Positions 7,401-25,301 of a stretch of DNA of 41,629 bases are shown here, in pieces. This stretch comes from Candidatus Hermodarchaeota archaeon. Lineage in GTDB: Archaea; Asgardarchaeota; Lokiarchaeia; Sigyniarchaeales; SOKP01. A model generated the notes under the pieces. It was given only the letters and a program-made list of their open reading frames with translations, searched no databases and had not been told where the DNA came from. Numbering within the stretch: the first letter of the stretch is position 1; every line of letters starts with the position of its first letter. Location: assembly GCA_048885535.1 (NCBI GenBank), contig JBHLLO010000024.1:1-41629 (forward strand), read 5' to 3'. The position numbers and the translations under genes are program-made.

Positions 7401-7781
7401 ATTCATAGTAATCCAAAAGTTCGTCAAGCAGCTGCTAATTTACTGAAAATCTATGATTTTAATATTATTAATGATAATTTTGATAAGATTACTATCTTAT
7501 TAGGGGATGAGTCTGAAGAAGTAAGAAGGTCCATAATAAATACTATGACTGAAGTAATAAACAATGTGGGTTTATCTAAAATGTTGTCGAGACTCCTAAA
7601 AAACTTAAGTGATTCTGGTTCATTAACCACTCAACAATCTATTGCTAGAATTTTAGGTAGAACTGCTAAATACGAAGAAGAAATGATTAAAAAGAGGGTA
7701 ATTGCATTACTAAAAGTAAGATGTGAGATGTCGCAAGACCCTATAATATGTGAAGTATTAACAAAATTGAAGGAGAATTAA
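4464..7781 (+). CDS. Polytopic membrane protein (~9 TM helices) fused to long HEAT-repeat alpha-solenoid
   Basis: aa ~1-350 carry about nine hydrophobic segments. aa ~370-1105 carry repeated HEAT signatures (e.g. LADSDEVVRRSAVMAL, LSDNDAFVREIAVKALG, LLDDEWIVREAAVSSL, GDNNVWVRNSA, HSNPKVRQAAA). Confidence 0.85.
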   Translation: MDNLIIEIILFVVFVLLFFFGFYIIHRQIALVKRGEFKVKDRLQCIIYGILFSLATMIVISMGATFTIETVNPLFLLIPFIICLSYMTIYPLIDFLFIALSRESDEGLTPFHKFISKNIINRSKNKKVSFFMAVLLYSLFITPILLLTLAGLPFLLIWISSMLIYPLLNLILYGTKGYIAGISNEYYHIPEIKRSIFLNFEDSKRGMKQFISSPRPYIILGFMIFVFLWAWISLFQTMGFFFTGSFAISTMSSYFAYVTLFFGIIGYFTRFWGRKIKYRAIDIYFAAYLMAAIGINVFINFILVNINVLSSSLNFWILTQEIELKYILYSWPSAIEEIILIIFTSYYLISKKNEFKFNIKYSKITQCGQTFDPIPLFNFIKNPNPELRVHAENTILLMFERIPLKSEVNPNEWKFKDMLIDGLCDPNLNSRRTCYKILKQLENTIPESILPWIIDGLQAPNYDKVYPFARSLLDADMDLLQKVPKKLILNLINDSEWRLKVVGLKLISKLIKHDKQMYLSLNIEKLINNPNNQIKIEAFKIIEMYGFSVPINDILSKFNHPNRKVRAAAIRSLKNVSIERINSKLVSQIIPYMADPTGTVRSSVFEAFAKIGNFKKFSIPVEPIFDGLADSDEVVRRSAVMALKTYFNENPKTLNIDTIVNRIDPTNTNILKSVLNLLGDLWEKDPEKILTIFLIFIKFEDDELKKEISRVLIKKYPISPNLIFDNLIKIKDESKFITKGIISSTIIEFARSNPDITFPKLLRSFESDNDDVVLNSIASFEGLIEDHLDKMQLETILSIFKKTHDIKIRKEGSQLISSIAKINPLFLKPVINELLQLQKSLDTSVRIILTKAILEIVKNEPELIPVPNIVDFLSDNDAFVREIAVKALGFLGHTRPLEIIDILLNKALLDDEWIVREAAVSSLAILISEVDDKREILLKLVSLMGDNNVWVRNSAMNLIASIEDVTPSIIPFDKLSDNLIHSNPKVRQAAANLLKIYDFNIINDNFDKITILLGDESEEVRRSIINTMTEVINNVGLSKMLSRLLKNLSDSGSLTTQQSIARILGRTAKYEEEMIKKRVIALLKVRCEMSQDPIICEVLTKLKEN

Positions 7782-10152: not shown

Positions 10153-10659
10153 TTAAATTTTTAAAACTAATTTTGATATTAATTGGAATGAATCGTCCAC
10201 GTTTTCTCCATTTTTTGCAGAAGTATAAAATATAGAATTAGCTTTTACTCTCTCTCCAATTTCTTCAATTTCTCTTTTTGAAAAGTCTGATTTAAGATCA
10301 TTTTTATTGGCAAGCAAAATAAACGGAATATTACCACAATTTTTTTTAAGATCTGGTACCCAAAACATAATTATTTGTTCAAATGTTTTTTTTCTGGTAA
10401 GGTCTCCAACAACTAATGCTCCATTGGTACCCTTATAGTATAAATCTCTCATTCTTACCCATCTTTCCTGTCCTGCTATGTCCCATAATTGAAGTGAAAT
10501 CTCTTTAGTAGAATTTAAATTAATCTTTTTAATGAATATATTTGTACCTATTGAGGCTTTATAATCTTTAGAGAAATGCCCTGATACGAACTTTTTTACT
10601 AAACTCGTTTTTCCTACTCCAGAATCTCCAATGATTATGATCTTTAAATTGTAAACCAT
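10153..10659 (-). CDS. Rab-like small GTPase (Ras superfamily)
   Basis: G1 GDSGVGKTS, G2 SIGT, G3 WDIAGQE, G4 NKND, G5 SAK; no C-terminal Cys prenylation tail. Confidence 0.95.
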   Translation of the reverse strand: MVYNLKIIIIGDSGVGKTSLVKKFVSGHFSKDYKASIGTNIFIKKINLNSTKEISLQLWDIAGQERWVRMRDLYYKGTNGALVVGDLTRKKTFEQIIMFWVPDLKKNCGNIPFILLANKNDLKSDFSKREIEEIGERVKANSIFYTSAKNGENVDDSFQLISKLVLKI

Positions 10660-12001: not shown

Positions 12002-12865
12002 GTGAATATTATTTCATACGAATATGAAAGAGATGATGAGGAAGAACCAAAAAAACCTACACCTCCGCCAATAAGACCCCCTTCAATGCCTCCACCTTCA
12101 GGACCACCTCCATCTATACCACCACCGCAACCCCCACTACCTCAACAACAACAATCTTATCCAACATATGAACCTGAGCCTTCAATACCAAGTGGCCCCT
12201 CACAAGTAGAATATAATGCAGCGATAAGTCAAATCCAAGAAAGTGAGTCAAGAATAACCCAATTACAAAGACAAGTTCAAGAGCTCAGTGCTCAACTTTC
12301 CAACTTAAACGCCCAACTTTTGGATAGGGATAACCAAGTAAATCAACTCACCTCTAAAATTCAAAATCTTCAAGCTACAATAGAAACTTATCAAAATCAG
12401 ATTACTCAGTTAAATAATGAGAAAGCTCAAATGCAAGCTCAAATACCACAATTACAAGGTCAGCTCCAGCGTGTTCAACAGGAAAACATGAACTTACAGC
12501 AACAAATAGGACCTCTTCAATCCCAAATTAATAAGTTACAAGAAGAATTGTCCTATAAAGAAAAAAGAATTCAGGAATTAAAAGAACCCAAACCAGTTAT
12601 GCCATCGAGTTTAGCCCAAGGAATAACCTCTCAAACGTCTACATATGGAAGTGGCACCTCTTTTGGGACATCTCAAACATCTAAACCTGCACCATCATCA
12701 GATGTGGGAGCTGGACTTGGCGGAACAAGAAGAATGTGTCCAAATTGTGGAGCTTCAGGTTTTGCAATTAAGGAAGTTGAGGATAAGACAAAAATAATTA
12801 GTTATATCCCAAAACCTCAATATGCGAAGAAAAACATTTGTACAAAATGTGGATTTGAATTTTAA
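12002..12865 (+). CDS. Proline-rich / Gln-rich coiled-coil / C-terminal C4 zinc-ribbon protein
   Basis: Polyproline N-terminus, ~120-aa heptad coiled coil, S/T/G-rich linker, CPNCG...CTKCG at C-terminus. True start may be ATT 12011. Confidence 0.8.
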   Translation: MNIISYEYERDDEEEPKKPTPPPIRPPSMPPPSGPPPSIPPPQPPLPQQQQSYPTYEPEPSIPSGPSQVEYNAAISQIQESESRITQLQRQVQELSAQLSNLNAQLLDRDNQVNQLTSKIQNLQATIETYQNQITQLNNEKAQMQAQIPQLQGQLQRVQQENMNLQQQIGPLQSQINKLQEELSYKEKRIQELKEPKPVMPSSLAQGITSQTSTYGSGTSFGTSQTSKPAPSSDVGAGLGGTRRMCPNCGASGFAIKEVEDKTKIISYIPKPQYAKKNICTKCGFEF

Positions 12866-13053: not shown

Positions 13054-16000
13054 ATGTCAGAATTTCGTGAAGATTTATTAATAACACCAATTAATAAGAA
13101 AAGAATAATTGGAATATTTCTTGTTACTATGTTATTAATTTCCTTATTTGCTTTCTCCGTATTGTTTTATAGTTTCCTTTTCGAGAGTCAAAGACCATAT
13201 CCGAGCGACAAACTTTCAGAAGCTGAATGGGAAGATGCTGATTTGACCTTGCCACCCTCTCCTTATAATTTTTCTATAGATGATTTTAGTGATTTAAATT
13301 TAACTTTAGACCAGCTTCAAGATATAATTGATACAATCCAAAATATGTTGGATGGAGATATTGATGATTTCGATCAAGCAAATTTCTCACTAGCTCAATT
13401 AGCTTTTCTTGCTTCTGAAGCTGAAGTATTTAGAGTTTATGAATATGATTTTTTTGATGACATGACAGAAAAATTATGGAAATATGAATGTTTTGATGAA
13501 TATACTGGCGATGGATGGCACTCTACAGCAGCCACACTCTTATCTAATTTTTATCCTTATAGTAATTATACAGCATATCATTGGGATAAAGATTTATTCA
13601 GAATAAAATTGCCTTTATCCCCTAATAATACAGGAGTTAATTCTTTTGTAATTCCCTCTCTTTTTCCAAGACCGCTTATTATAGAAGGTGGAATTTATTC
13701 AGTACCTCCTAATATAAATTTTGATTCAGAGATTTTATATATTGATGATTTAAATTGCTCTATATTAGAAGTAGATTTTAATAATGCGGAGGATACAAAT
13801 CTATCTTATTATTTATTTGGTTTAGACTTACCAGATAATAATCAAATTAATAATACAGCAGTACAAGCGCAATATACTCCTCTTTCTATTCAAAGTAGGT
13901 ATTTACAGCTCCCACCATCTATAAATGTATATTTAGCCAATAACCCTTATGTTTATAATCACTTTACAATCTTAAATAATACTATAAATGAAGATGACAA
14001 TGCATTTGTAGTAGCTAATAAAATAAGAAATTATTTTCAAACATATTTTACATTCCCTCTTGATCCAGACGATTATGTTCCTGCCCCTAGTGGAAGGGAT
14101 GTAGTAGATTGGTTTTGTGAAACACAACAAGGAGCTTGGGCAGACTTTGCTTCCGCTTTTTGTGTATTTACGAGATTTTTTGGAATTGCAAGTAGATTTG
14201 TTGATGGATTTAATAGTTTTGGCATTGAAGAAGTTTGGGATCCAGTAGAATTGTTAAATACCTTTGCTGTTAAATATAGGAATCTTTACAATTGGGCGGA
14301 AGTATTTATCCCTACTGATACTCTAGGAAATGGACAATGGGTACAAATGGACATTTTATTTGATAGTTTTGGAGTCGGGGGGAACCCAATAATAGGAGGT
14401 AACTATAGTGTCTCTGTCACCTCTAATAACTTAATATATAATAGACCAGATGTAGCAAATTTAACAGCCTATCTAAGTTCCAGCACCGAACCCATAGATA
14501 ATAAAAGAATTACATTCAGAGACGTAACTAGTGGAGAAATCCTTGGTTCTAGCTTCACAGACCTAAGTGGGAGAGCTTCTATTTTAACCAATATTGATAA
14601 TTCGAAAATAGTAGGTCCTCATGTGATTGAAGCAAGATTTGACTTCTTTATTGCTAATTATAGTTTCTTTATCATTGAGGGGGATATCCAAGTAAGACTG
14701 ACAAATGTCAATCCAACCAAAGTAAATCGTTCCGATAGCATCCCAGATGTCACAAATATACAAGGATATTTATATGATCCTATAAAAGGTGAAAATGTTA
14801 AGAATAGCGAAATAAATTTTGTGTTACTTCAATATGGCACAAATAATCCTATTTTTAATGCTTTTATACCTTCATCTCAATTCACTGACCTTAATGGGAA
14901 TTTTAATGATGTTCTAAATATCAATCCTGGTGTTTCATCTGGTCAATATGAAATAAGAGCTGATTTTAATGGAACTTTTTATTTACCAATTTTCTATATA
15001 CCTTTCACTTATGGTCCAATTGCAAATTCTAGTCAAAAAGTTGGATTTAATATAACTAAAGCATTGTCTATTTTATTTTATATTAATAACTTACCAGCTC
15101 AAGATGCAAATAACCCTGTAATTTATAGATACGATACTTTAAATCTTACTGCAAGAGTTATCCTTGAAAATGTTGGACCCATTCAAGGGCGCACAGTCTA
15201 TTTTTATGATGATACTCGAGGTGGTTTTGAAATAGGAAATGATGTAACAGATGTAAATGGTATAGCATCAATTAATTATTTTATAGGAGATAATAGTTTG
15301 ACTGGTCCAAATCTATTATATGCAAGGCATAATTTACAAGAAAATTATTCTTATTTCATTTTAAATGAAGAACCTTGGATAAATATTATATCTGGACCAA
15401 ATCCAAGAGAAATTAATCGAACAGCAACAGGAGCTACAAATACACAATTCTTTATTGAAGGAGAAATCTTAGACAGTATAAATTTTAATCGAATATACAA
15501 TTGCGAATTAACCCTAAAGTTGTTAAGGTTTGGGTTAGATTACTCCTCTTATTTAATTCCTAGTGAATATATTTGGACTTCTGATGGATATTTTTATTTG
15601 CCATTTGAAGTTGCTCCAAATACTCCAACTGGAAATTATACGTTAAGACTAGATTTTAACGGAACTCTTGAGCGTTTTTGGGATCCTATTAATCAAATGT
15701 GGCAACCCTATTATTTTCTTCTTCCAATATTGAATACGTCCTCAGCTTTTACGAATGAATTGCTAATTTCGACCCCTACAAAATTATCCTTTAATTTCTG
15801 GATAAATGGAACTACATCTGATAATTATAATCAACCTATAATTAATCGAAATGGAGATCTTGACCTTTCGGTGTACTTAACTTATGGAGGAACTCCAATA
15901 GCAAATGGAGAAATCATATATTTTTATGATGTTACTCAAGGAATCCCAATTGGAACAGCGTCAACTACTTTAGGATTTGCTCAAATTTTGTATTCTACGA

Positions 16001-17508
16001 GTATTTCGACCGTAGCAGGACCACATCTGCTGAGAGCAAGGTGGGGTTCTAATTATAATTATTCTTACTTCATTCTGGATGAACCAATTAGTGTAGATAT
16101 TGAAAGCGGACCTATACCACGAGAAATTAATAGAGGTCAAACAAGTTTTAATTTACGTGGATATGTGAATGACTCATTAAATCGCCTTCCTATCAAATTT
16201 GTAAGAATATCAGTTTATATGGTAGATGGAGGAACTGATTATACTTCTTATCTTAGGCTAATTGGTGGATCCTATCAACTGGGTATTAATGGTGAATTTG
16301 ATCTCACTTTTTCAGTATTAAGTTCTACACCTGCTAAAAATTATACTTTACAAATTGAATTTGATGGTATTTTTTCATATTCTCGCCCTCGAAATTACAA
16401 TAATGAGAACGACTTTTATTTGGGTTTCCCTAACTTTTACGATATAATAAGCAGTCCTCATGAATTAAAAGTGATTGATCCTGAAAAACTTAATATCAAT
16501 TTGGCTATTGAGGGAAATCCAACCTTACCATTCTATGACAATATAAATCCTCCTGAAACTTATTATTTTGGAGAGATAGCGCACATTCAAGTCCAAGTTA
16601 ATCATTCTTTACCAAAAACAGGAAATACTGTATATCTTTATGATGATTTTACTAACAATCTAATCTCTTCTTATACTTTTCCAGACGATTCTGGATTCAC
16701 ACAATTTGATATTCCTACTAACATGTTACACGCGGGATTAATAAGACTGCGAGTAAATTATCATACTTATAGTACATTTAATACAACTTACATAGTAATT
16801 AATGAGACTATCAATATTTCAATAAATCCAGATTACAATTTTGAAGTCCAAAGAAACATCCAACAATTTACTGTTAATGGCATTCTTCAGCAAAACGGAA
16901 CCAATCTAGATGGTTTAGTTATTGGGATGTTTCTTTTAAACGATCTATTTGCAGATGCCTCAACTTATGTAAATTTCAATGGACCTCAATTTAGAGTAGT
17001 TTCTAATGGTAATTATTTTTATACTGATAATTCAATATTTATTAACTGCCCTTCCGGCAATTATTACTTATTAGTTTACTTCACTGGAAGTATTAGTGAA
17101 TCTGGAATTACATTAGCAAATTACATGACTACTTCAATAAGTATGCTTGTTCCAATAAATATAACAGCTGGTACCTATATAAATGGGAATTTTGAGACGA
17201 GAGTTGTCAAAGACCAATTCTATGAAGGGGACGATCTTTACGTATATGGCTATTTAAGATGGGATAATGGAAGTGCTATAGCTAATAAACAAGTTAATGT
17301 AACTATAAGAGACAGTCTAGGAAATATAATTACAAGCGCGGTAAATTTTACGGATTCTAGTGGGTTTTTTAATATAACGATAACTGTAGGAGCAGGTTGG
17401 CCAGACGATGCTGAAATATGGGTTACTTTTTACCCTAAAGATAATTTTAATGCTCCATATCATTTCTTTGTTAAAGGAATCGAACAACAATTATTTAGAC
17501 CACCGTAA
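13054..17508 (+). CDS. Large membrane-anchored surface protein: N-terminal TM, TgpA-like transglutaminase-fold domain (catalytic residues substituted), tandem Ig-like repeats
   Basis: TM at aa ~18-42; WKYECFDEYTGDGW (TgpA N-region-like); DVVDWF..QQGAWADFASAF..FTRFFGIASRFVDGF, YNWAEVF and WVQMD match the transglutaminase-like core; beta-rich repeats with many N-x-S/T sequons. Confidence 0.8.
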   Translation: MSEFREDLLITPINKKRIIGIFLVTMLLISLFAFSVLFYSFLFESQRPYPSDKLSEAEWEDADLTLPPSPYNFSIDDFSDLNLTLDQLQDIIDTIQNMLDGDIDDFDQANFSLAQLAFLASEAEVFRVYEYDFFDDMTEKLWKYECFDEYTGDGWHSTAATLLSNFYPYSNYTAYHWDKDLFRIKLPLSPNNTGVNSFVIPSLFPRPLIIEGGIYSVPPNINFDSEILYIDDLNCSILEVDFNNAEDTNLSYYLFGLDLPDNNQINNTAVQAQYTPLSIQSRYLQLPPSINVYLANNPYVYNHFTILNNTINEDDNAFVVANKIRNYFQTYFTFPLDPDDYVPAPSGRDVVDWFCETQQGAWADFASAFCVFTRFFGIASRFVDGFNSFGIEEVWDPVELLNTFAVKYRNLYNWAEVFIPTDTLGNGQWVQMDILFDSFGVGGNPIIGGNYSVSVTSNNLIYNRPDVANLTAYLSSSTEPIDNKRITFRDVTSGEILGSSFTDLSGRASILTNIDNSKIVGPHVIEARFDFFIANYSFFIIEGDIQVRLTNVNPTKVNRSDSIPDVTNIQGYLYDPIKGENVKNSEINFVLLQYGTNNPIFNAFIPSSQFTDLNGNFNDVLNINPGVSSGQYEIRADFNGTFYLPIFYIPFTYGPIANSSQKVGFNITKALSILFYINNLPAQDANNPVIYRYDTLNLTARVILENVGPIQGRTVYFYDDTRGGFEIGNDVTDVNGIASINYFIGDNSLTGPNLLYARHNLQENYSYFILNEEPWINIISGPNPREINRTATGATNTQFFIEGEILDSINFNRIYNCELTLKLLRFGLDYSSYLIPSEYIWTSDGYFYLPFEVAPNTPTGNYTLRLDFNGTLERFWDPINQMWQPYYFLLPILNTSSAFTNELLISTPTKLSFNFWINGTTSDNYNQPIINRNGDLDLSVYLTYGGTPIANGEIIYFYDVTQGIPIGTASTTLGFAQILYSTSISTVAGPHLLRARWGSNYNYSYFILDEPISVDIESGPIPREINRGQTSFNLRGYVNDSLNRLPIKFVRISVYMVDGGTDYTSYLRLIGGSYQLGINGEFDLTFSVLSSTPAKNYTLQIEFDGIFSYSRPRNYNNENDFYLGFPNFYDIISSPHELKVIDPEKLNINLAIEGNPTLPFYDNINPPETYYFGEIAHIQVQVNHSLPKTGNTVYLYDDFTNNLISSYTFPDDSGFTQFDIPTNMLHAGLIRLRVNYHTYSTFNTTYIVINETINISINPDYNFEVQRNIQQFTVNGILQQNGTNLDGLVIGMFLLNDLFADASTYVNFNGPQFRVVSNGNYFYTDNSIFINCPSGNYYLLVYFTGSISESGITLANYMTTSISMLVPINITAGTYINGNFETRVVKDQFYEGDDLYVYGYLRWDNGSAIANKQVNVTIRDSLGNIITSAVNFTDSSGFFNITITVGAGWPDDAEIWVTFYPKDNFNAPYHFFVKGIEQQLFRPP
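14400..17160 (+). repeat. About four degenerate tandem ~230-aa paired Ig-like units within the 1484-aa protein (boundaries approximate)
   Basis: Recurring motifs: (I/V)xFxDxTxG..IG...T..G.A.I, (V/T/A)GP(H/N)xxxAR..NYS(F/Y)FI, PxxINR, GxYxxRxDFNG. Conserved at protein level, degenerate at DNA level. Confidence 0.7.
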
Positions 17509-17529
17509 TTAAAAAAAATAAATATTACA

Positions 17530-19101
17530 ATGAGAAATACCTCAATCAAAAGCAATAATAATGGAAAACTACATAAGAATAATTTCAAATTAGTATTAGG
17601 TCTAATATTGTCAATTATTTTTTTATATGGTATAAATTGTAATCCTAATAAAATGTTGACCCTTGTTGAGCATAAGAACTTCAAGACTTCAGGTATTTGG
17701 GCAACATTAGATTTGATTGATATGTTTGGAGTTAATAATTCTCGACATCCTCATAACTCTACAATCCAAATCTATGGAAGATTATATAATAGAATAACAG
17801 ATGAGGGAAAAGTAGGATTTACTGTTGCTCTAAAGATTAATAGTATACTATATTCAAGTATTAATGATGACACAGATATTAATGGATATTTCTTAATTAA
17901 TTATAATGTAGATCCTTCTCTTGATGTTTATTCAAGCCATGTAATAGAAGCAGAAGTCATTGATGCAACCCCAGATAATGTCGAATATCGCACTCATTTA
18001 TTGATATTCGTAAATACTACTTCTTATTTTACTGTTCAAGACCCTCCATCTGCATCCTTACATGGCGAATTTTTTAATTTTGAAGGATATTTGAACTTTC
18101 AGAACGGTATTGGAATTCCTAATAGACTTATCAACTATTATTGGTATGATGGTCCAAATATTGTAGATTCCAACTTTCTTTTTACAGATAGTTCCGGTAA
18201 AATACCTTATAATTATATAATCATTCCTTTTGTTCCACAAGATGATTTAGTTTTAAAATTAAACTTTTCTGATTATCCGAATGTCGCGTATTCGGAAACC
18301 TTAATTAGTAATACGAAAATTTTTTCAGATATATCATGTATTTGGAATTTGCCTTCGACTATTAGGGAAAATAATGATTTAAATATCGCTGGAACCTTAG
18401 TATCAAGTACAGATTCAAATCTTAAAATTAGCAATAGAGATGTAGAAATATATTATAACTCAACTTTCATAGGGATGGATACCACAGATAATAATGGAGT
18501 TTTTTCATTTGTATATAGACTTCCAGTTGGAGTTGGAGTTAGTAGTATAAGGATTGTTTTAGGTGGGACTGGAGTAGATACAATTCGATATATTGATGTA
18601 GAAGCAGAAGTACCAAGTACACCAGCACCTCCAGGTGGAACACCTTATTTGATGTTTTTAGCAATATTTTTACCAATCTTAGGCAGTATCATTCTTGGAC
18701 TTGCAATCTTTGGCTATCGTTATTATAAAAAACAAGATAAACTTTCAAGGGTTGTAAGTTTACCTCTTGAAAGTAAAATAAAAAATCTAAAAATTCTTAA
18801 AGATTCTGGGAGGTTAGAGGAATCTTTATCGTACCTTTTTAATGCAATTTATATGGATCTGGTAAATGCTAAATATGGGAGATCAAGACTAATAAATGAA
18901 ACTATCAGGGATTTTGCAATAGTTAGTGTAAAAGATCTAAAGCTAAACCCTACAAGTATTTACCCCTTTATTCAAAAAATTGAAGAAATAATATATGCTA
19001 AACCATTTCAGATAAGTGAAAATGACTTTTATAAAACAGTGGAGCTATTTTCTCCAATTTACTTACAATTAACGGGATATAATTTTATTTTAAATTTTTA
19101 A
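17530..19101 (+). CDS. Single-pass membrane protein: signal/TM, Ig-like ectodomain, Pro-rich linker, TM, cytoplasmic DUF4129-like domain
   Basis: N-terminal hydrophobic segment; TDxNGxF-type beta repeats; PSTPAPPGGTP linker; TM followed by RYYKK; C-terminal ETIRDFA...IEEIIYA resembles DUF4129 (ETxREF...FEEARY). Confidence 0.75.
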   Translation: MRNTSIKSNNNGKLHKNNFKLVLGLILSIIFLYGINCNPNKMLTLVEHKNFKTSGIWATLDLIDMFGVNNSRHPHNSTIQIYGRLYNRITDEGKVGFTVALKINSILYSSINDDTDINGYFLINYNVDPSLDVYSSHVIEAEVIDATPDNVEYRTHLLIFVNTTSYFTVQDPPSASLHGEFFNFEGYLNFQNGIGIPNRLINYYWYDGPNIVDSNFLFTDSSGKIPYNYIIIPFVPQDDLVLKLNFSDYPNVAYSETLISNTKIFSDISCIWNLPSTIRENNDLNIAGTLVSSTDSNLKISNRDVEIYYNSTFIGMDTTDNNGVFSFVYRLPVGVGVSSIRIVLGGTGVDTIRYIDVEAEVPSTPAPPGGTPYLMFLAIFLPILGSIILGLAIFGYRYYKKQDKLSRVVSLPLESKIKNLKILKDSGRLEESLSYLFNAIYMDLVNAKYGRSRLINETIRDFAIVSVKDLKLNPTSIYPFIQKIEEIIYAKPFQISENDFYKTVELFSPIYLQLTGYNFILNF

Positions 19102-19206
19102 ATAGATATTAAAAAAATAATGAAAATTGATTAAAAATAATTAGAAAAAAATAAAAACTCGTAAAAAATAATTTATTAAAAAAAGAAATAAGGAAAGGGT
19201 ATTAGT

Positions 19207-19587
19207 ATGGTAAAAGTAAAGAAAAAGAAAAAACAACAAGAACCAGAGTTGGATGTATCACAAAGTTTTGAAAATGTAAAGGTATTGGTCCAATCAGAAA
19301 GATCTAAAGAGGCTATAGCGTATATCTATCTTGTTTATAATGATCTAGTTAGAAAGAAATATAAGAAAGCTAGATTAGCTCACCAAACAATTCGGGAATA
19401 TGCGATTACATGTGTTAATGAATTAGGTCAAAAACCTGAATCTGTGTATCCATTTATAAGAAAGATCGAAGATATAATATATGGAGGAGTGGAACCAACA
19501 AATAAAGAATTGAACTTCACAATAGATCTATTTTCAAATCTTTACAACGAGATTACCGGAAAGAAATTACATGCAGTAAGTTTTTAG
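19207..19587 (+). CDS. Stand-alone DUF4129-like protein
   Basis: EAIAYIY...QTIREYA...IEDIIYG; visibly paralogous to the C-terminal domain of the upstream gene. Confidence 0.75.
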   Translation: MVKVKKKKKQQEPELDVSQSFENVKVLVQSERSKEAIAYIYLVYNDLVRKKYKKARLAHQTIREYAITCVNELGQKPESVYPFIRKIEDIIYGGVEPTNKELNFTIDLFSNLYNEITGKKLHAVSF

Positions 19588-19634
19588 TTCTTTTAAAAGC
19601 TAAGAAAATACACTCTATAATAAGTTTATAAAAA

Positions 19635-21398
19635 ATGGTTGTTAGTGGAAAAAGTAAAGGAAAAAATGTAAATTTATCAAAGGGAATATTATTTGTATTC
19701 TTTACCATATTTCTAGTTTTTTATGGTATATTTATTTCAGATTTTATAGACATCTTTAATGAAAATCATCCTGGAGAGACACTTCCATCTTACTTAAGCT
19801 ATGTTCCTTTTGTCTGTTATGTTGGAGCAGTCTTTTTAGGTGTAGGTTTTATTATTTTTCTTAGGAATATAACTGCTCAAAAATCAAGAGAAATCCTTTC
19901 CCGTAAAAAAGTGCAAACAGGTTCTATATATAAAGAAGCTTTATTACTAACAATCTTTATTTTTGCTTTTATCCCTTTAATTGGACCTATTTTCGATCGA
20001 GGAGAGAATGATCACAATTTTTCAATATATAATGATGATTGGAATGGTGCTTCAGATTTTAGATACACCCTTGAGAATGAAGGTTATGATGTAATGGCAA
20101 TACAAACTAGCTTAAGCGCAACTGAACGCCTTAATAAACTAAATAAGTCAATATTACTTATATTATTGGGTACGAATCAGTTTTATAACCCCCTTAATGA
20201 AATTCCATACTTTATAAATTTCTTTAGAAGTAATGTAACAAATTCTCTTTTTATATGCCATGATCACGGCAGTACAAGTACTTTACTATGGGAAATATTC
20301 ATTGCTAGTGCTCTAGATCCAGATATTCAAGGTGCTCTTCCTGTTACAATATTTCCAAAAGGTATCTTAAGAGATAATGGATCATATGAGTTACGACCTG
20401 ATTTTCCAGTAATCGAATCTTTTCCAGGACACCCAACTACTGCAGGTTTAAATCCACCAACTTCAAATATTAATAGAATAATTCTTTCTGAAGCCTCCGC
20501 TGTTGTTGGAGGTCCATTTGTAAGCTATTTTGGATGGGATATAGTCGGTTCTACTACCGATTACTCATATGTTGATGTAAATGGAGATCATATGTATAAA
20601 GAGGAGGATGATTATGTGGATTTGAGTATGGTATCTGCTGTAATACCTGTTTTTCCTGATCGATTGGGATTAAGTAGAGCACAAACAGTGTTTGTGGCAA
20701 AAGACACTGGTATCGGACGAATCTTTTTATCGGCAGATGCCAGTTTATTCAATAATGAATTAATAAATCAACCAGGTTTTGATAACCGTCAATTTGGGAT
20801 TAATATCATTAATTGGCTGACATATAATCTTCCCAAAGAAGATTGGGTCATCGCTTTTGATGAGGCCCATATTCGACCAGAATATTCTAGAGATCTTACT
20901 TCTGCAGGAATATTTGGCTTTATTATACAATATATAATACACCTTTCAACAAATCCAATAACAGCATGGATATATCCTCTTCTAGCAGTTTATAGCCTAA
21001 AGAAATATTTACCCAAAAAAGATGAGAAATCTCAAAAAAAGAAAGCTAAAAAACAAGAACAAAAGGAAGAACGAGAAAGATTTAGAACTTCTTCCTATTT
21101 TGCTCAAAAAATAGAGTGGTTCAGGAATAAGAGTGAATACAGTAAAGCCTTAAAATTACTTTACAGAAGGTTAGAACGTAAATTAAATGCTCAATTGCAA
21201 GGTCAAGTAATTTCAACTAAAAATGTTGTCGATTTAGCTATAGCTAAAGAACCACTTATATCAAAAGTAAAAATAAAAAGAATTTCAAAATTCATAGATA
21301 GAATGTTATCTGTTAAAGAAGGAAAATCTAAAGTGAAAAATGAACAAGATTTTGAAAACCTATTCTTCGAGATGGAATGGGTTGTTAATAATATATAA
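19635..21398 (+). CDS. DUF4350 (GIFT/GldG-like) domain membrane protein
   Basis: Three N-terminal TMs; FSIYNDDWNGASDF, GRIFLSADASLFNNELI, DNRQF..N.INWL and FDEAH motifs typical of DUF4350; further TM and charged helical tail. Confidence 0.75.
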   Translation: MVVSGKSKGKNVNLSKGILFVFFTIFLVFYGIFISDFIDIFNENHPGETLPSYLSYVPFVCYVGAVFLGVGFIIFLRNITAQKSREILSRKKVQTGSIYKEALLLTIFIFAFIPLIGPIFDRGENDHNFSIYNDDWNGASDFRYTLENEGYDVMAIQTSLSATERLNKLNKSILLILLGTNQFYNPLNEIPYFINFFRSNVTNSLFICHDHGSTSTLLWEIFIASALDPDIQGALPVTIFPKGILRDNGSYELRPDFPVIESFPGHPTTAGLNPPTSNINRIILSEASAVVGGPFVSYFGWDIVGSTTDYSYVDVNGDHMYKEEDDYVDLSMVSAVIPVFPDRLGLSRAQTVFVAKDTGIGRIFLSADASLFNNELINQPGFDNRQFGINIINWLTYNLPKEDWVIAFDEAHIRPEYSRDLTSAGIFGFIIQYIIHLSTNPITAWIYPLLAVYSLKKYLPKKDEKSQKKKAKKQEQKEERERFRTSSYFAQKIEWFRNKSEYSKALKLLYRRLERKLNAQLQGQVISTKNVVDLAIAKEPLISKVKIKRISKFIDRMLSVKEGKSKVKNEQDFENLFFEMEWVVNNI

Positions 21399-21449
21399 CT
21401 TAAATAAGTTATCATGATAACCAATTAAATTAATAAAAAAATCAAAAAT

Positions 21450-22451
21450 GTGAAAAAAATGGAAGTCCCAGAAAAAGGCCCAGATAAAGCAAAATATTAT
21501 GAGAGAGAGGAACTCGATGTAACTCCTATCCGCGAGATGGCTCAAGAAGTTCTAAGCGAAGTCTCTCGTGTAATTGTGGGTTATGGAGAAATATTACAAC
21601 AACTCTTTATAGCACTTCTTGTAAATGGCCATGTACTCTTAGAAGGGGTACCCGGTCTTGGGAAAACAGTAATGGCAAAAACATTCGCTAAGACATTAGG
21701 AATCTCATTTAGACGAGTACAATTTACTCCCGATCTTCTTCCAGCGGACATTACAGGTACAAAAATATTTTCTCAAGAAGAAGGAAGTTTTGTGCTTCAA
21801 AAAGGTCCAATTTTCGCTAATGTTGTACTTGCAGATGAAATAAATAGAAGTGCACCAAAAACTCAAGCTGCTCTATTAGAAGCTATGGCAGAACGACAAG
21901 TAACAATAGAAGGTCAGACCTTACTATTAGATACACCATTTATTGTCCTTGCTACTGAGAACCCTATAGAAATGGAAGGAACTTACCCACTCCCTGAAGC
22001 TCAATTAGATAGATTTCTGATGAAATTATGGCTTGATTATCCAGAAGAGGATGGAGAAGTAGAAATAATGAGAAGACAAATTTCTGGAGAATCCCCTTCA
22101 GTTGAACAGATTACTAGTGCACAAGAAATACTTGCTGCTCAAAAACTGATGAATTTAGTTTATATTGATGATAGAATATTAAAATATATCAGAGATATAA
22201 TATTAAAAACACGCAATCACCCACAATTAAGTATGGGCGCTGGTCCAAGAGCAAGTTTAGTATTAATGAAATGTGCTAAAGCACGAGCATCAATTTTAGG
22301 ACGTCAATATGTTACTCCTGATGATGTAAGAGCTTTGGTGTTCCCTGCATTGAATCATCGAATACTATTAAAACCTGAAGCGGAATTAGAAGGTCTAGAT
22401 GTTAAATCGGTCATCAAAAATATTATAGAGGAAATACCAATTCCAATCTAA
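21450..22451 (+). CDS. moxR: MoxR-family AAA+ ATPase (MoxR proper subfamily)
   Basis: GHVLLEGVPGLGKT, RVQFTPDLLPADITG, LADEINR, ATENPIEMEGTYPLPEAQLDRF, GAGPRA. Confidence 0.97.
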   Translation: MKKMEVPEKGPDKAKYYEREELDVTPIREMAQEVLSEVSRVIVGYGEILQQLFIALLVNGHVLLEGVPGLGKTVMAKTFAKTLGISFRRVQFTPDLLPADITGTKIFSQEEGSFVLQKGPIFANVVLADEINRSAPKTQAALLEAMAERQVTIEGQTLLLDTPFIVLATENPIEMEGTYPLPEAQLDRFLMKLWLDYPEEDGEVEIMRRQISGESPSVEQITSAQEILAAQKLMNLVYIDDRILKYIRDIILKTRNHPQLSMGAGPRASLVLMKCAKARASILGRQYVTPDDVRALVFPALNHRILLKPEAELEGLDVKSVIKNIIEEIPIPI

Positions 22452-22527
22452 AAAAGCCTCTCTATGAATAAAACAATTATAAAAAATTTTGTATAAGAAA
22501 AATAACTAAAAGGATGGTGAAATAACA

Positions 22528-23856
22528 ATTTTTGGAGGAAAAGGAAGAACTCTGATTCTATTTTCAGTTTTTTTTCTTACAGCAGGATTTGCATTTGTAA
22601 ATTATTTCTTAGTGTATTTTGCCATACTTTTATTATTTAGTACTATAATTAGTCTTCCTGCTTTTTATTGGAAGATGAATGTGGAGGAATTACGTGTATA
22701 TCGTGAATTAGAAAAGGAAAAAGTTTTCAAAGATGACTTTGTACATATAAAAGTAGTTGTTGAAAACACAGGAAAAAATAGCTTTGATTTTATTGAAATT
22801 CGAGATTATTTTAGTCCAGAACTCTTTCGGCTAGTATTAGGTGAAAATTTTATTTCTACCCGCATTGGTCCAAAAGGTTTAATCAAGTTCTCTTATGTTT
22901 TAGAACCAAAAGTAAGAGGGGAGTATCCTCTTGGGCCTCTCTCAATCATAATAAAAGATAGGCTTGGTTTTAATTCAGAAGAGAGAATAGTTCCTAATAG
23001 CGTTTCAGACATTTTAGTTTATCCCCCTTACGAAGATATCAAAAAGATTGAAATTTTAGGTTCAAAGAGATCTCTTCAAATCAATTATGGGTTGGAAAGA
23101 TCTAAGCAAAAAGGATTAGGTTCAGAATTCTATGGTATGAGGAAATACGTATTTGGAGATCAATTCAGGTTGATAGATTGGAAGGCAAGTGCTCGTTCTC
23201 AACAATTGATAGTAAAGGAATTTGAGAGCGAAAGAGACATTACAGTAATGGTTATTGTTGACTCCTCAAATTCTATGGCGGGTGGTGCTATTGAAAACAC
23301 AAAGTTTGAATATGCCATACGAGCTTGTATGCTTTTAACAAAAGTTGCATTAACACGTCGAGATAGCATTGGTATATTTACTTTTTCAGATAAAAAGAAT
23401 ATGAACTTTTTAAAGCCAGGAAAAGGAGAGGATCATTTTTATCAAGTCTTAGATTTTGTTGCTAAAATTAAACCTCAAGGAAAAAGTCGAATGGTTGAAG
23501 CTATGGACTTTTTTATAAGAAGATTTCAAAAGCGAAGTTTAGTCTTTTTTATATCAGATTTAGAATCAGATGTTAAAGAAATTGGTCAAGCATTGAGGAA
23601 GCTAATTCCTTTTAATCATACAGTAATAGTTGTTAATCCTTTTAGTCCTTGGTTCGAAATTCATGAAATTGATTTATCTTCTACTGATAAAGCTCTAGCA
23701 GAAGCCATAAGTGAGGAGATGATGGAGCACATTCTTAAGGTAAAACAAGATCTTCGAAACCTTGGAATTAATCTTATAACAGTAGGTCCTGATGATATGA
23801 TGAATCAAGTATTAGGTAATTATATGGAGGCAAAGAAAAAAGGGAAGGCGTTTTAA
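22528..23856 (+). CDS. DUF58 / VWA-domain protein with N-terminal TM hairpin
   Basis: EFYGMRKYVFGDQFRLIDWKASAR, VKEFE, MIDAS-like DSSNS, ISD. Frame is open upstream of the ORF-track GTG 22612 back to stop 22507-22509; start placed at ATT 22528. Confidence 0.9.
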   Translation: MFGGKGRTLILFSVFFLTAGFAFVNYFLVYFAILLLFSTIISLPAFYWKMNVEELRVYRELEKEKVFKDDFVHIKVVVENTGKNSFDFIEIRDYFSPELFRLVLGENFISTRIGPKGLIKFSYVLEPKVRGEYPLGPLSIIIKDRLGFNSEERIVPNSVSDILVYPPYEDIKKIEILGSKRSLQINYGLERSKQKGLGSEFYGMRKYVFGDQFRLIDWKASARSQQLIVKEFESERDITVMVIVDSSNSMAGGAIENTKFEYAIRACMLLTKVALTRRDSIGIFTFSDKKNMNFLKPGKGEDHFYQVLDFVAKIKPQGKSRMVEAMDFFIRRFQKRSLVFFISDLESDVKEIGQALRKLIPFNHTVIVVNPFSPWFEIHEIDLSSTDKALAEAISEEMMEHILKVKQDLRNLGINLITVGPDDMMNQVLGNYMEAKKKGKAF

Positions 23857-23858
23857 TT

Positions 23859-25301
23859 ATGGCAAGATCCTATTTATTAGCATTAAAGATAATTAATGTT
23901 CTACTATATGTGTGGTTATTGTTCGTTTTCCTTTCAATTTTTCAATTTAATGAAGTACTTTTTACTCCTGATGGAGAATTTGCTTTACTAGCATTTTTGG
24001 ATAGTTTAAAAAATATTTTTACATTTTTCATTTTTGGTGTTGCTTATTTCATTGCAATAGGATGTGCCTTTTTTGCCTCATCTATTTTCTTTGTGAATCG
24101 TAATTTCATGTTTGCCTTCATTAATGAGTTTTTTAAGAACTTTTTAAGTCTTTGGTTCACATTCCCTACTGGAACTCCACCAAGTATCGATCAAATCCCA
24201 AATTTAATTCTAAATGAAATTTCAATATTTCTTGGAGATTTTTATTTAATTTCATTTCAATTATTATTTATAATATCAATTATATATGCAATTAGGACGT
24301 TCTTTAAAACAAACCCGAAACATGATTTATTAGCTGTAGGTGCACTAGTGCTAATGATTGTAGTACCACTTATTTTAACTGGCTACAAAAATATGTTGGA
24401 TTTATTCCATGTCTCAAGTAGTTATTTAGAAGACTTGCCAATACCATTAACCGATTCTCTTAGCAATATTCCATTAGAGAATTTCTTTCTTTTTCTAGCA
24501 AGTCCTGTTATACTACTCGCAATTATTTCTTACATGTATATAGAATTAGCTTTTCAAATTAACTATACTGAAACAGTAACTAAGCCTTCTTTAGAAAGGA
24601 GCAGTAGATTGGAAACTCAACTAAATATACTTCAAAGTGAATCACATTTTATTATAGCTAATGTTGATAAAATCAAAGAAGAAGCTAAAAAAAGAATAGA
24701 AGAAATAGAAATGGGAGAAAAAACAACGCTCAGTAAGTTTTTTGCTAAAACAAGTGAAAAGTTTTCTTACGTCAAAGAAATGATTGAAAAGAAAAAGTTA
24801 GAAGAAGAAGAGAAAAAGTTAATATCTGCTGCATCAAAAACAAGACGATTAGGAAGATATGTGGAAAGACTGTTTCGTGAAGATTCTGAAGCACAAGACA
24901 CTTTAACAGCTAGATCATCGGCCCCAAAGCCAAAGAGTTTAGCAATATCCACTTTTATAAATGTCATTATTCGTCTTGTGGTACTTATTATAATCAGTTT
25001 TATCATTATTCATCCACGATGGTTCTTGGAAGATGTTTTCAGTTTACCACCAGCTATCACAGAGAGTGTAGCTATATATTCTCCAGAAGTTATTATTATT
25101 TTATTATTGCCAATCATGTTAATTTTTCCAATAATTTCTAAGGTTGTATCATATATAAAACATAGAAATTTGATTATTAAGCTGCAACAAGAAGGAAGAA
25201 TCAAAGAAATTTTAACATCTGTTGGTGATTATGTCAAAAAGGAAGAAATTAAAGATGAAAAACTTAAAGAAGACATAAAAGTAGAAGGAGCGGTAACTTA
25301 A
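23859..25301 (+). CDS. Polytopic membrane protein with central charged coiled-coil region; last gene of MoxR operon
   Basis: Starts 2 nt after DUF58 stop; ~5 N-terminal TMs, ~125-aa E/K-rich helical loop, 2 C-terminal TMs. Confidence 0.75.
   Translation: MARSYLLALKIINVLLYVWLLFVFLSIFQFNEVLFTPDGEFALLAFLDSLKNIFTFFIFGVAYFIAIGCAFFASSIFFVNRNFMFAFINEFFKNFLSLWFTFPTGTPPSIDQIPNLILNEISIFLGDFYLISFQLLFIISIIYAIRTFFKTNPKHDLLAVGALVLMIVVPLILTGYKNMLDLFHVSSSYLEDLPIPLTDSLSNIPLENFFLFLASPVILLAIISYMYIELAFQINYTETVTKPSLERSSRLETQLNILQSESHFIIANVDKIKEEAKKRIEEIEMGEKTTLSKFFAKTSEKFSYVKEMIEKKKLEEEEKKLISAASKTRRLGRYVERLFREDSEAQDTLTARSSAPKPKSLAISTFINVIIRLVVLIIISFIIIHPRWFLEDVFSLPPAITESVAIYSPEVIIILLLPIMLIFPIISKVVSYIKHRNLIIKLQQEGRIKEILTSVGDYVKKEEIKDEKLKEDIKVEGAVT

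Follow-up and report, generated by a model that had tools for sequence, protein, structure and literature searches.

Introduction

MoxR-class AAA+ ATPases pair with adaptors whose von Willebrand factor A (vWA) domain has a metal ion-dependent adhesion site (MIDAS), as in RavA-ViaA, CbbQ-CbbO, NorQ-NorD and midasin/Rea1. In the working principle that we assume, the client is gripped at an acidic residue by the vWA/MIDAS domain and remodelled by the AAA+ ring. Such clients are soluble or respiratory enzymes and pre-ribosomes, whereas those presumed for the system described here, a seven-gene cluster (g1 to g7) of Candidatus Hermodarchaeota archaeon, would be membrane-spanning surface proteins. 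The cluster lies on contig JBHLLO010000024.1 (assembly GCA_048885535.1); this entire 41.6-kb contig is the window that we analysed, and it belongs to a genome bin of 3.09 Mb with about 30% G+C.

Zhang and Aravind (2012) described the MoxR-vWA-YebA/TgpA operon, proposed membrane-proximal proteolysis for it, and tied it, via lateral transfer, to the origin of dynein, midasin and ciliary transglutaminase-like proteins (PMC3495828). In Pseudomonas the three genes are co-transcribed, tgpA is essential, and the TgpA domain is periplasmic and a transglutaminase in vitro (Milani et al. 2012; PMC3507681). Around DUF4350, MoxR and an immunoglobulin-like (Ig)-vWA protein of archaea, Makarova, Galperin and Koonin (2015) predicted a secretion or membrane-remodelling complex (PMC5898192). 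In Schaalia odontolytica, one of the oral Actinobacteria, the Esr Ig-filament sensor is held on the cell by a transglutaminase and signals via MoxR-vWA and kinases. This 2026 preprint gives a related actinobacterial set its first functional role (bioRxiv 10.64898/2026.09.08.750141), and Esr is the only experimentally probed system of such make-up that we found. Full-text searching of the literature returned no functional study of the cluster in archaea.

The cluster resembles each of these systems in part. As in PA2875-PA2874-tgpA of Pseudomonas aeruginosa, genes for MoxR and DUF58/vWA adjoin one for a transglutaminase-like protein that is anchored in the membrane and has an extracytoplasmic domain. 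The cluster differs from that operon in that the catalytic Cys and His are missing, g1 has one N-terminal transmembrane (TM) segment instead of the polytopic TgpA_N, a beta-sandwich stalk of about 1000 residues is present, the DUF4129 tail is on separate genes, DUF4350 and g7 are added, and the gene order runs the other way, starting with the transglutaminase-like gene. In common with the archaeal DUF4350 (arCOG01314) system, the cluster has DUF4350/GldG-like, MoxR, Ig-vWA (DUF58-type), Ig-like surface and polytopic proteins, all with functions that are predicted only; this co-occurrence was matched by component class, not by specific arCOGs. The published description of arCOG01314 names no transglutaminase-like or DUF4129 component (PMC5898192), and the cluster has both. 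The vWA protein of that system was predicted to be secreted, whereas the two-helix hairpin and composition of the cluster's vWA protein point to the cytoplasm.

In Esr, MoxR and vWA likewise occur with a transglutaminase-like protein and a surface filament of Ig repeats. Its sensor head is a beta-propeller, and it further includes Ser/Thr kinases, FHA proteins, a phosphatase and a connection to Esx secretion; the cluster has none of these. The Esr transglutaminase is taken as active and filament-anchoring, in contrast to the g1 head. The PFNA genes of Bifidobacterium (pkb2-fn3-MoxR-duf58-tgm) also encode a surface beta-sandwich (FN3) protein, MoxR, DUF58 and a transglutaminase-like protein in fixed order; as described, they differ in their kinase, to which some species add a phosphatase and FHA, in having no DUF4350 or g7, and in being genus-specific and host-associated (PMC8430577). 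The original prediction had placed the cluster in a known recurring context of MoxR, DUF58, transglutaminase, DUF4129 and DUF4350, and these sources bear this out (PMC3495828, PMC5898192). We regard the module as a form of the prokaryotic MoxR-DUF58(vWA)-TgpA operon that has merged with the arCOG01314 neighbourhood of archaea.

Results

The cluster as a form of an Asgard-wide gene core

Judged by gene content and order, the cluster (Table 1) is the Loki-type form of a five-gene core found across Asgard archaea. Among 20 distant Asgard loci, DUF4350-MoxR-DUF58-g7 was contiguous in 16, and two more read DUF58-MoxR-g7. In 11 of the 20, a TgpA-like giant of 1168-1843 aa was encoded directly upstream of DUF4350 (split in two in one locus). 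Where scanned, beta-sandwich repeats separate a Transglut_core in the front part of the giant from a C-terminal DUF4129. Orthologous giants scored above the Pfam cut-offs for TgpA_N (partial, 32.4 and 35.2 bits), Transglut_core and DUF4129 (32-38 bits). The Asgard core therefore comprises five genes: giant, DUF4350, MoxR, DUF58/vWA and polytopic g7.

In the order to which this genome belongs, the single ancestral giant is replaced by g1, g2 and g3. In this replacement g1 would correspond to the giant without its C-terminal anchor, g2 would provide an ectodomain, TM helix and DUF4129, and g3 would be a free DUF4129; g1 itself shows no TgpA_N match, no C-terminal TM helix and no DUF4129. The two DUF4129 copies (g2 tail and g3) that had been reported as a duplication are thus both present, with this replacement as their origin. 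The proposal that an extra membrane subunit was added in this lineage did not survive the comparison, as g7, MoxR and DUF58 form a phylum-wide Asgard trio.

Survey of 201 Asgard genomes detected the DUF58 subfamily in 190, including 85 of the 86 high-quality genomes, and did not find it in families f12, f15 and f18. We detected g7 in 171 of the 201 and in 83 of the 86 high-quality genomes, and within this sample only in families that also have the DUF58 subfamily. In the families where the first search missed g7, all five loci inspected encode a divergent polytopic g7-like protein (E 2e-23 to 2e-7) directly after DUF58. The order sample contained the DUF58 protein in 40 of 41 genomes. At closer range, we used a set of related loci drawn from the DUF58 alignment, which holds close Promethearchaeota relatives only (74-95% identity) and is silent on non-Asgard contexts. 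Among the 42 family loci whose flanks were long enough, 40 contained all seven genes, and the order was identical in 8/8 genus loci. Median identities were 86.1% for g5, the most conserved gene of the cluster, 83% for g6, 75% for g3, 61% for g7, 59% for g4, 49.8% for g2 and 46.7% (52 loci) for g1, the fastest-evolving gene. Co-conservation, which the original prediction had proposed to check by mapping the genes across Asgard archaea, thus holds for close and distant relatives alike.

Phylogenetic analysis of DUF58 recovered all seven multi-member families as monophyletic, with six label changes, the minimum possible, and the order as a supported clade. The tree tracks taxonomy and is therefore as expected for vertical descent.

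Some loci depart from the common arrangement. In three from another family of the same order (L007, L008 and L009), TPR, LRR and DEAD-box helicase genes lie between MoxR and DUF58, leaving the cluster in two blocks. Two loci of family f16 (L029 and L038) read DUF58-MoxR-g7 with no DUF4350 or giant within about 6-7.5 kb upstream; the system may be reduced or rearranged there. One DUF58 gene of this Asgard family with 82% identity (L083, DATKTW010000073.1) is on a contig titled as a Nanopelagicaceae (actinobacterial) bin; the title is probably a binning error.

Table 1 Coordinates of the cluster genes and of the two regions of g1 within the window.
Feature	Position	Strand	Length or residues	Description or basis
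g1	13054..17508	+	1484 aa	N-terminally anchored giant surface protein (predicted)
Transglutaminase-like core of g1	13987..14352	+	residues 312-433	Transglut_core
Stalk of g1	14374..17505	+	residues 441-1484	AlphaFold2 model and Foldseek
g2	17530..19101	+	523 aa	bitopic, ectodomain, TM and DUF4129-like tail (predicted)
g3	19207..19587	+	126 aa	free soluble DUF4129-like protein (predicted)
g4	19635..21398	+	587 aa	DUF4350 (GldG/GIFT-like) ectodomain protein (predicted)
g5	21450..22451	+	333 aa	MoxR-family AAA+ ATPase, cytoplasmic (predicted)
g6	22528..23856	+	442 aa with revised ATT start	DUF58/vWA; canonical-start open reading frame 22612..23856, 414 aa
g7	23859..25301	+	480 aa	polytopic membrane protein (predicted)

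A transglutaminase-like head on a beta-sandwich stalk

The earlier description of g1 as a TM-transglutaminase-like-Ig-repeat protein held in all its parts. The protein has a single TM-like segment (residues 18-36), a Transglut_core that scores 39.8 bits (Pfam cut-off 23), and an all-beta stalk whose model matches tandem beta-sandwich proteins. A profile of the orthologous heads matched TgpA of Pseudomonas aeruginosa (PDB 6g49, E 3.9e-6), the sole solved relative found; a PDB sequence search with g1 residues 1-500 alone gave 0 matches. Aligned to 6g49 and factor XIII, the catalytic Cys is replaced by Trp and the His by an invariant Tyr, and the Asp is kept. As judged from these residues, we confirm that the transglutaminase domain is catalytically dead, and the triad places g1 as a TgpA-type transglutaminase homologue that is not a working member of the family.

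Comparison of the triad columns (Cys, His and Asp positions) across Asgard families revealed a graded loss. The genus has Trp, Tyr and Asp, and the sister family f4 has Pro, Tyr and Glu. The His is present in the remaining families compared, with Ser, His and Asp in f23, f17 and f8, Asp, His and Glu in f28, Gly, His and Asp in f14, and the full Cys, His and Asp in f10 and f21. On this alignment the pseudo-enzyme state is real but lineage-specific, as two Asgard families retain Cys-His-Asp. The dead enzyme domain claimed for this locus therefore stands, with Trp and Tyr at the Cys and His positions, but it is not a general property of the system. Within the genus, mean pairwise identity was 63% for the head and 52-58% for the stalk. 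The head is thus at least as conserved as the stalk, which fits a retained binding role.

The AlphaFold2 model of the stalk is all-beta, with about 70 strands and almost no helix (predicted local distance difference test score, pLDDT, 70.2; predicted template modelling score, pTM, 0.36). The low pTM is expected from a beads-on-a-string arrangement. The best Foldseek matches were tandem beta-sandwich chains, with a bacterial alpha-2-macroglobulin on top (E 1e-20), and Big_1 and MG2 of Pfam matched residues 1392-1446 below their cut-offs. The model suggests roughly ten tandem beta-sandwich (Ig/macroglobulin-like) domains, a count estimated from length. The g1 sequence contains 36 N-X-S/T sequons compared with 20.1 +/- 3.9 in composition-preserving shuffles, an excess of 4 standard deviations, suggesting that g1 is probably N-glycosylated. 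The head is predicted to be extracellular because it lies behind the single N-terminal TM helix and ahead of the sequon-rich stalk.

DUF4129-like and DUF4350 proteins

The g2 protein is predicted to start with a signal or TM segment, followed by an ectodomain, a TM helix (376-394) and a cytoplasmic DUF4129-like tail, and no TM segment was predicted in g3. The g3 protein and the g2 tail are similar to each other (E 4e-26). Out of 18 aligned domains from g3, g2 tails and giant tails, 16 matched PF13559 (DUF4129; family cut-off 24.8 bits) at E<=0.01, and the g3 of the window was one of the two misses. It reached Pfam-positive orthologues by phmmer (E 1e-7 to 4e-9). The g3 orthologues scored 17.7-42.6 bits on PF13559, with several of the aligned homologous domains above the cut-off. 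Searches of the window's own genome with PF14258 (DUF4350) and PF13559 did not recover the window's genes. The window proteins have no DUF4129 match of their own and no DUF4350 match above the cut-off, so both calls rest on orthologues, and DUF4129 membership of g3 and of the g2 tail would be by transitive homology only. One Glu is invariant in 18/18 of the aligned DUF4129-like domains.

On this basis, the free DUF4129 of the original prediction holds through its orthologues rather than through its own Pfam match. Its Ig-TM-DUF4129 reading of g2 holds likewise for the TM helix and the tail; the Ig-like fold of the ectodomain is putative. Only a short stretch links the g2 ectodomain to the g1 stalk (186-223 against 1399-1437, 46% identity over 39 residues), and an hhalign comparison of the two was weak (E 0.008, probability 4.9%).

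Two of the 18 DUF4129 domains, both from other Asgard families (L019:14834-15274 and L023:14938-18663, each on the minus strand), also matched NICE-3, the Pfam family of eukaryotic C1orf43, at E<=0.01, one of them above the cut-off (24.7 against 22.7 bits). A link between DUF4129 and this eukaryotic membrane protein family is possible on these profile matches.

DUF4350 scored 25.6 bits in g4, below the cut-off of 30.4, and 76.3 and 68.1 bits, above it, in orthologues from other Asgard families linked by phmmer; the TM-DUF4350/GIFT assignment stands through these orthologues. The orthologues also match ABC_transp_aux (GldG-like). Hydrophobic segments lie at residues 17-35, 57-75 and 102-120 of g4, and a conserved hydrophobic stretch before the tail is likely a further TM helix. 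The predicted topology is that of DUF4350/arCOG01314 proteins, with a large ectodomain (5.9% Lys plus Arg) between N-terminal and C-terminal TM segments. The basic cytoplasmic tail is kept across Asgard archaea, and it aligned with a DUF4129-like profile by hhalign (probability 82%, E 1.1e-5, 95 columns). We regard this tail as a possible further DUF4129-like handle, a lead rather than a finding. On another contig of the genome, G000:C4:31389-31931 has a weak PF14258 match (21.8 bits) and may encode a second GldG-like protein.

The MoxR ATPase and the DUF58/vWA protein

The MoxR assignment of g5 was confirmed by AAA_3 (217.1 bits, cut-off 27) and AAA_lid_2 (78.1 bits). Its translation contains intact Walker A (GVPGLGKT) and Walker B (DEINR) motifs. 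The protein also passes the bpMoxR cut-off (36.3 against 27 bits), with a score far below that of AAA_3.

The g6 protein matched DUF58 (119.8 bits, cut-off 23.4) and VWA_2 (45.3 bits, cut-off 27) and is the only DUF58 protein in the genome. It carries DSSNS, and among 26 orthologues Asp245, Asp344 and Glu346 are invariant and Ser247 is present in at least 90%; these residues belong to the conserved MIDAS motif (DxSxS ... T ... D).

The TM-DUF58/VWA description thus stands for the domains, and the start of the gene needs revision. Ahead of GTG 22612 the frame stays open back to 22510, and this stretch encodes one more hydrophobic helix. In 8/8 genus relatives, the position of ATT 22528 is occupied by a start codon (ATG in seven and GTG in one), and a Shine-Dalgarno-like GGTGA lies 6 nt upstream of it. 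In all 80 related loci, the match begins within query residues 1-21, ahead of the GTG codon (residue 29). From these comparisons, g6 most likely starts at ATT 22528, a codon that reflects a non-canonical start or else an error in the consensus of the bin. A tiny out-of-frame ATG-GTG-AAA-TAA occupies 22514-22525, just before this codon.

With the ATT start, the N-terminus of g6 is basic and is followed by two TM helices; this two-helix hairpin would therefore keep the vWA domain and the beta-sandwich cytoplasmic. The inter-helix loop of some families is extended by a long insert containing N-X-S/T words, as would fit a loop on the outside. Composition shows a similar partition: Lys plus Arg amounts to 5-6% in the predicted ectodomains (g1, g2 38-375 and g4 121-440), where Asn is 8-10%, and to 11-24% in the predicted cytoplasmic parts (g2 tail, g3, g4 tail, g5, g6 and the g7 hairpin). 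These values and the sequon counts fit the topology of the original prediction, with ectodomains outside and MoxR, vWA and DUF4129 inside.

An Asgard-restricted polytopic membrane protein

No Pfam, NCBIfam or PADLOC family was assigned to g7. Its AlphaFold2 model (pLDDT 88.7, pTM 0.75) is all-helical with 6-8 TM helices, and helices 216-294 and 301-341 form a long charged hairpin of about 100 residues between membrane segments; conserved motifs are present. The model agrees with the earlier description of a polytopic coiled-coil protein. Foldseek gave no match at E<=0.001 (best E 0.45) and no transporter match better than E 0.45 and TM-score 0.14, and the best VIA-align hits (Z 8.5) were generic helical bundles. 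This is a confident model without a solved fold match, which does not establish a new fold.

The family is small, with 125 clusters among 1.84 billion representatives (E<=0.001). Of its distant clusters, 20 were looked up and six were named, all from Asgard lineages (Prometheo-, Hel-, Odin-, Hod- and Thorarchaeota). Searching the ESM Atlas with g7 returned its own family only. The named relatives of g7 are thus restricted to Asgard archaea.

Gene spacing and neighbouring genes

The seven open reading frames occupy 13054-25301 on the plus strand, at the same coordinates as reported earlier, and the short gaps between co-oriented genes were also confirmed: from g1 to g7 they measure 21, 105, 47, 51, 160 and 2 nt with g6 counted from GTG 22612. 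With the probable ATT 22528 start of g6, the gap between g5 and g6 would be 76 nt and not 160. The 3' end of g7 is overlapped by a convergent cofD gene. No run of five or more T occurs in any intergenic gap of the cluster, and the AT-rich gaps hold TATA-like words that make internal promoters possible. A scan with sigma-70 promoter and intrinsic terminator models found fewer sites than in shuffles; the models are bacterial, and we did not use this result.

By Pfam, topoisomerase VI, MCM, a Ras-like GTPase and HDAC are encoded upstream and CofD, CofE, LeuRS and TIM downstream. We ruled out a mobile or defence island, which does not fit because the flanks are housekeeping genes and the DUF58 tree tracks taxonomy. 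PADLOC returned only generic P-loop matches on the cluster, and NCBIfam no specific match for g1 to g4 and g7.

At 188 nt upstream of g1, a gene at 12002-12865 (+) encodes a 287-aa coiled-coil protein with generic coiled-coil Pfam matches only. It is present in 35 family loci, out of 80 in total and out of 42 whose flanks are long enough, and was not found in other families, and a T6 run and TATA-like words lie between it and g1. This gene may be a lineage-specific neighbour outside the cluster. Two further proteins encoded a few kilobases upstream have a eukaryote-like look, a 1105-aa HEAT-repeat protein (4464-7781, +; Adaptin_N 65.9 bits) and a Ras-family small GTPase (10153-10659, -; 139.8 bits).

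Discussion

Our analyses confirm the original observation of the cluster and partly support its interpretation. We consider it about an even bet that the cluster is a vertically inherited, Asgard-wide envelope module in which a cytoplasmic MoxR/vWA unit assembles or remodels a surface complex. Outside the membrane would stand g1, anchored N-terminally with its pseudo-transglutaminase head and Ig-like stalk, together with the g2 ectodomain and the GldG-like ectodomain of g4. Inside would be a MoxR hexamer, the hairpin-tethered DUF58 protein, the DUF4129 tails of g2 and possibly g4, the free g3 and the coiled-coil hairpin of g7. DUF58 would dock MoxR at the membrane beside g7, and its MIDAS would grip an acidic residue of a cytoplasmic handle on the surface subunits; as a speculative candidate for this residue we infer the invariant DUF4129 Glu. 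ATP hydrolysis by MoxR could then lead to a surface complex that is assembled, matured or conformationally switched, with the dead transglutaminase head serving as a binding module rather than an enzyme.

Several points weigh against this assembly or remodelling role. MoxR systems also insert metals or activate enzymes, and surface remodelling is one option among several. Pfam gave no match for g2 and g3, with no DUF4129 even at E<=10, and 0/18 g4 tails matched PF13559, so that their DUF4129 link comes from the one hhalign result. The Ig-vWA protein of the archaeal system was predicted to be secreted, which is the opposite topology (PMC5898192, Table 2), and the published glycoproteome reports Asgard N-glycosylation mainly on a solute-binding protein (PMC11284389).

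Instead of acting on its surface proteins, the system could listen to them: as an outside-in sensor, its fast-evolving Ig-rods would detect a partner cell, virus or surface and signal via DUF4129 to MoxR-vWA. Esr clusters use an Ig filament (EsrA), a transglutaminase (EsrD), MoxR and vWA in threat sensing (bioRxiv 10.64898/2026.09.08.750141), the same has been proposed for MoxR-vWA ternary conflict systems, and the ectodomain genes of the cluster are its fastest-evolving ones (g1 46.7% and g2 49.8% against 86.1% for g5). The bpMoxR match of g5 also points this way, although its 36.3 bits are far under the 217 bits of AAA_3. We find sensing possible and yet unlikely. It is weakened because Pfam on the window and a few relatives detected no kinase, FHA, beta-propeller or effector gene, with PADLOC giving only the generic P-loop matches, and because the system is single-copy, near-universal and taxonomy-tracking, unlike sporadic mobile conflict systems. 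In addition, profiles of the cluster genes marked nothing between those genes in the 20 distant loci, where flanking ORFs were not scanned for other families. A novel secretion or translocation system, in which g1 and g2 are exported or displayed through a conduit of g7 and the GldG-like g4 that MoxR powers or gates, seems improbable to us. It agrees with what has been predicted in print for neighbourhoods that combine DUF4350-MoxR-vWA with Ig-like and polytopic proteins (PMC5898192), and both the ABC_transp_aux matches of the g4 orthologues and the 6-8 TM helices of g7, with no known fold, would suit a conduit. The N-terminal hydrophobic segments of g1 and g2 are ordinary and could use Sec, the g7 model had no transporter match beyond those poor scores, and no separate cargo genes are conserved adjoining the cluster. 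To our knowledge, MoxR ATPases do not act as translocation motors, which also counts against secretion.

A bolder version of surface remodelling would have the Asgard-wide set of MoxR, tethered vWA/MIDAS adaptor, g7 and DUF4129-tailed surface proteins work from the inside out as an ATP-driven, integrin-like device that pulls on giant adhesion rods or switches them, to serve partner contacts. Such a device could also be a vertical source of the links from MoxR to midasin and dynein and from the transglutaminase-like protein to ciliary TGL, and the handle may have a eukaryotic descendant, as hinted by the weak NICE-3 signal in two of the DUF4129 domains. We give this scenario little credence. 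Membrane-proximal degradation, with vWA recruiting a substrate, MoxR unfolding it and the transglutaminase-like domain cleaving it, is very improbable here, even though it was hypothesized for the parent three-gene operon (PMC3495828) and two Asgard families keep the full Cys-His-Asp, with three more having His and a Ser at the Cys position. The genus has Trp/Tyr and the sister family Pro/Tyr at the Cys and His positions, the g1 head is predicted to be outside the cell while MoxR has no signal peptide, and the TgpA domain itself is reported as periplasmic and a transglutaminase in vitro (PMC3507681). Equally hard to credit is mere co-location, in which the genes form no functional unit and some act independently. 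The interrupted loci of three order relatives and the TATA-like words in the AT-rich gaps would allow it, whereas order and orientation are kept across the phylum, g6 and g7 are 2 nt apart, and g7 was found in the sampled genomes only in families with the DUF58 subfamily.

To the original prediction we add a phylum-wide core of five genes that became seven here, the graded loss of the triad, the probable ATT start and its DUF58 hairpin, the g7 model and the possible DUF4129-like tail of g4. Asgard archaea are described as having no ordered S-layer and, by cryo-electron tomography, unidentified 'complex surface proteins' (PMC9834061), and contacts between cells that bear on eukaryogenesis have been attributed to these surfaces. 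The cluster is among the few surface-protein gene sets kept by almost every sampled Asgard genome. A near-universal surface set coupled to a cytoplasmic AAA+ motor is therefore a concrete candidate for study in cultured strains. With g7, the analysis also defines a family of membrane proteins restricted to Asgard archaea, for which the confident model has no counterpart among solved structures. Finally, Asgard archaea have active-looking, Ser-substituted and dead transglutaminase heads within one conserved system, and this series could reveal the role of the bacterial MoxR-DUF58-TgpA operon.

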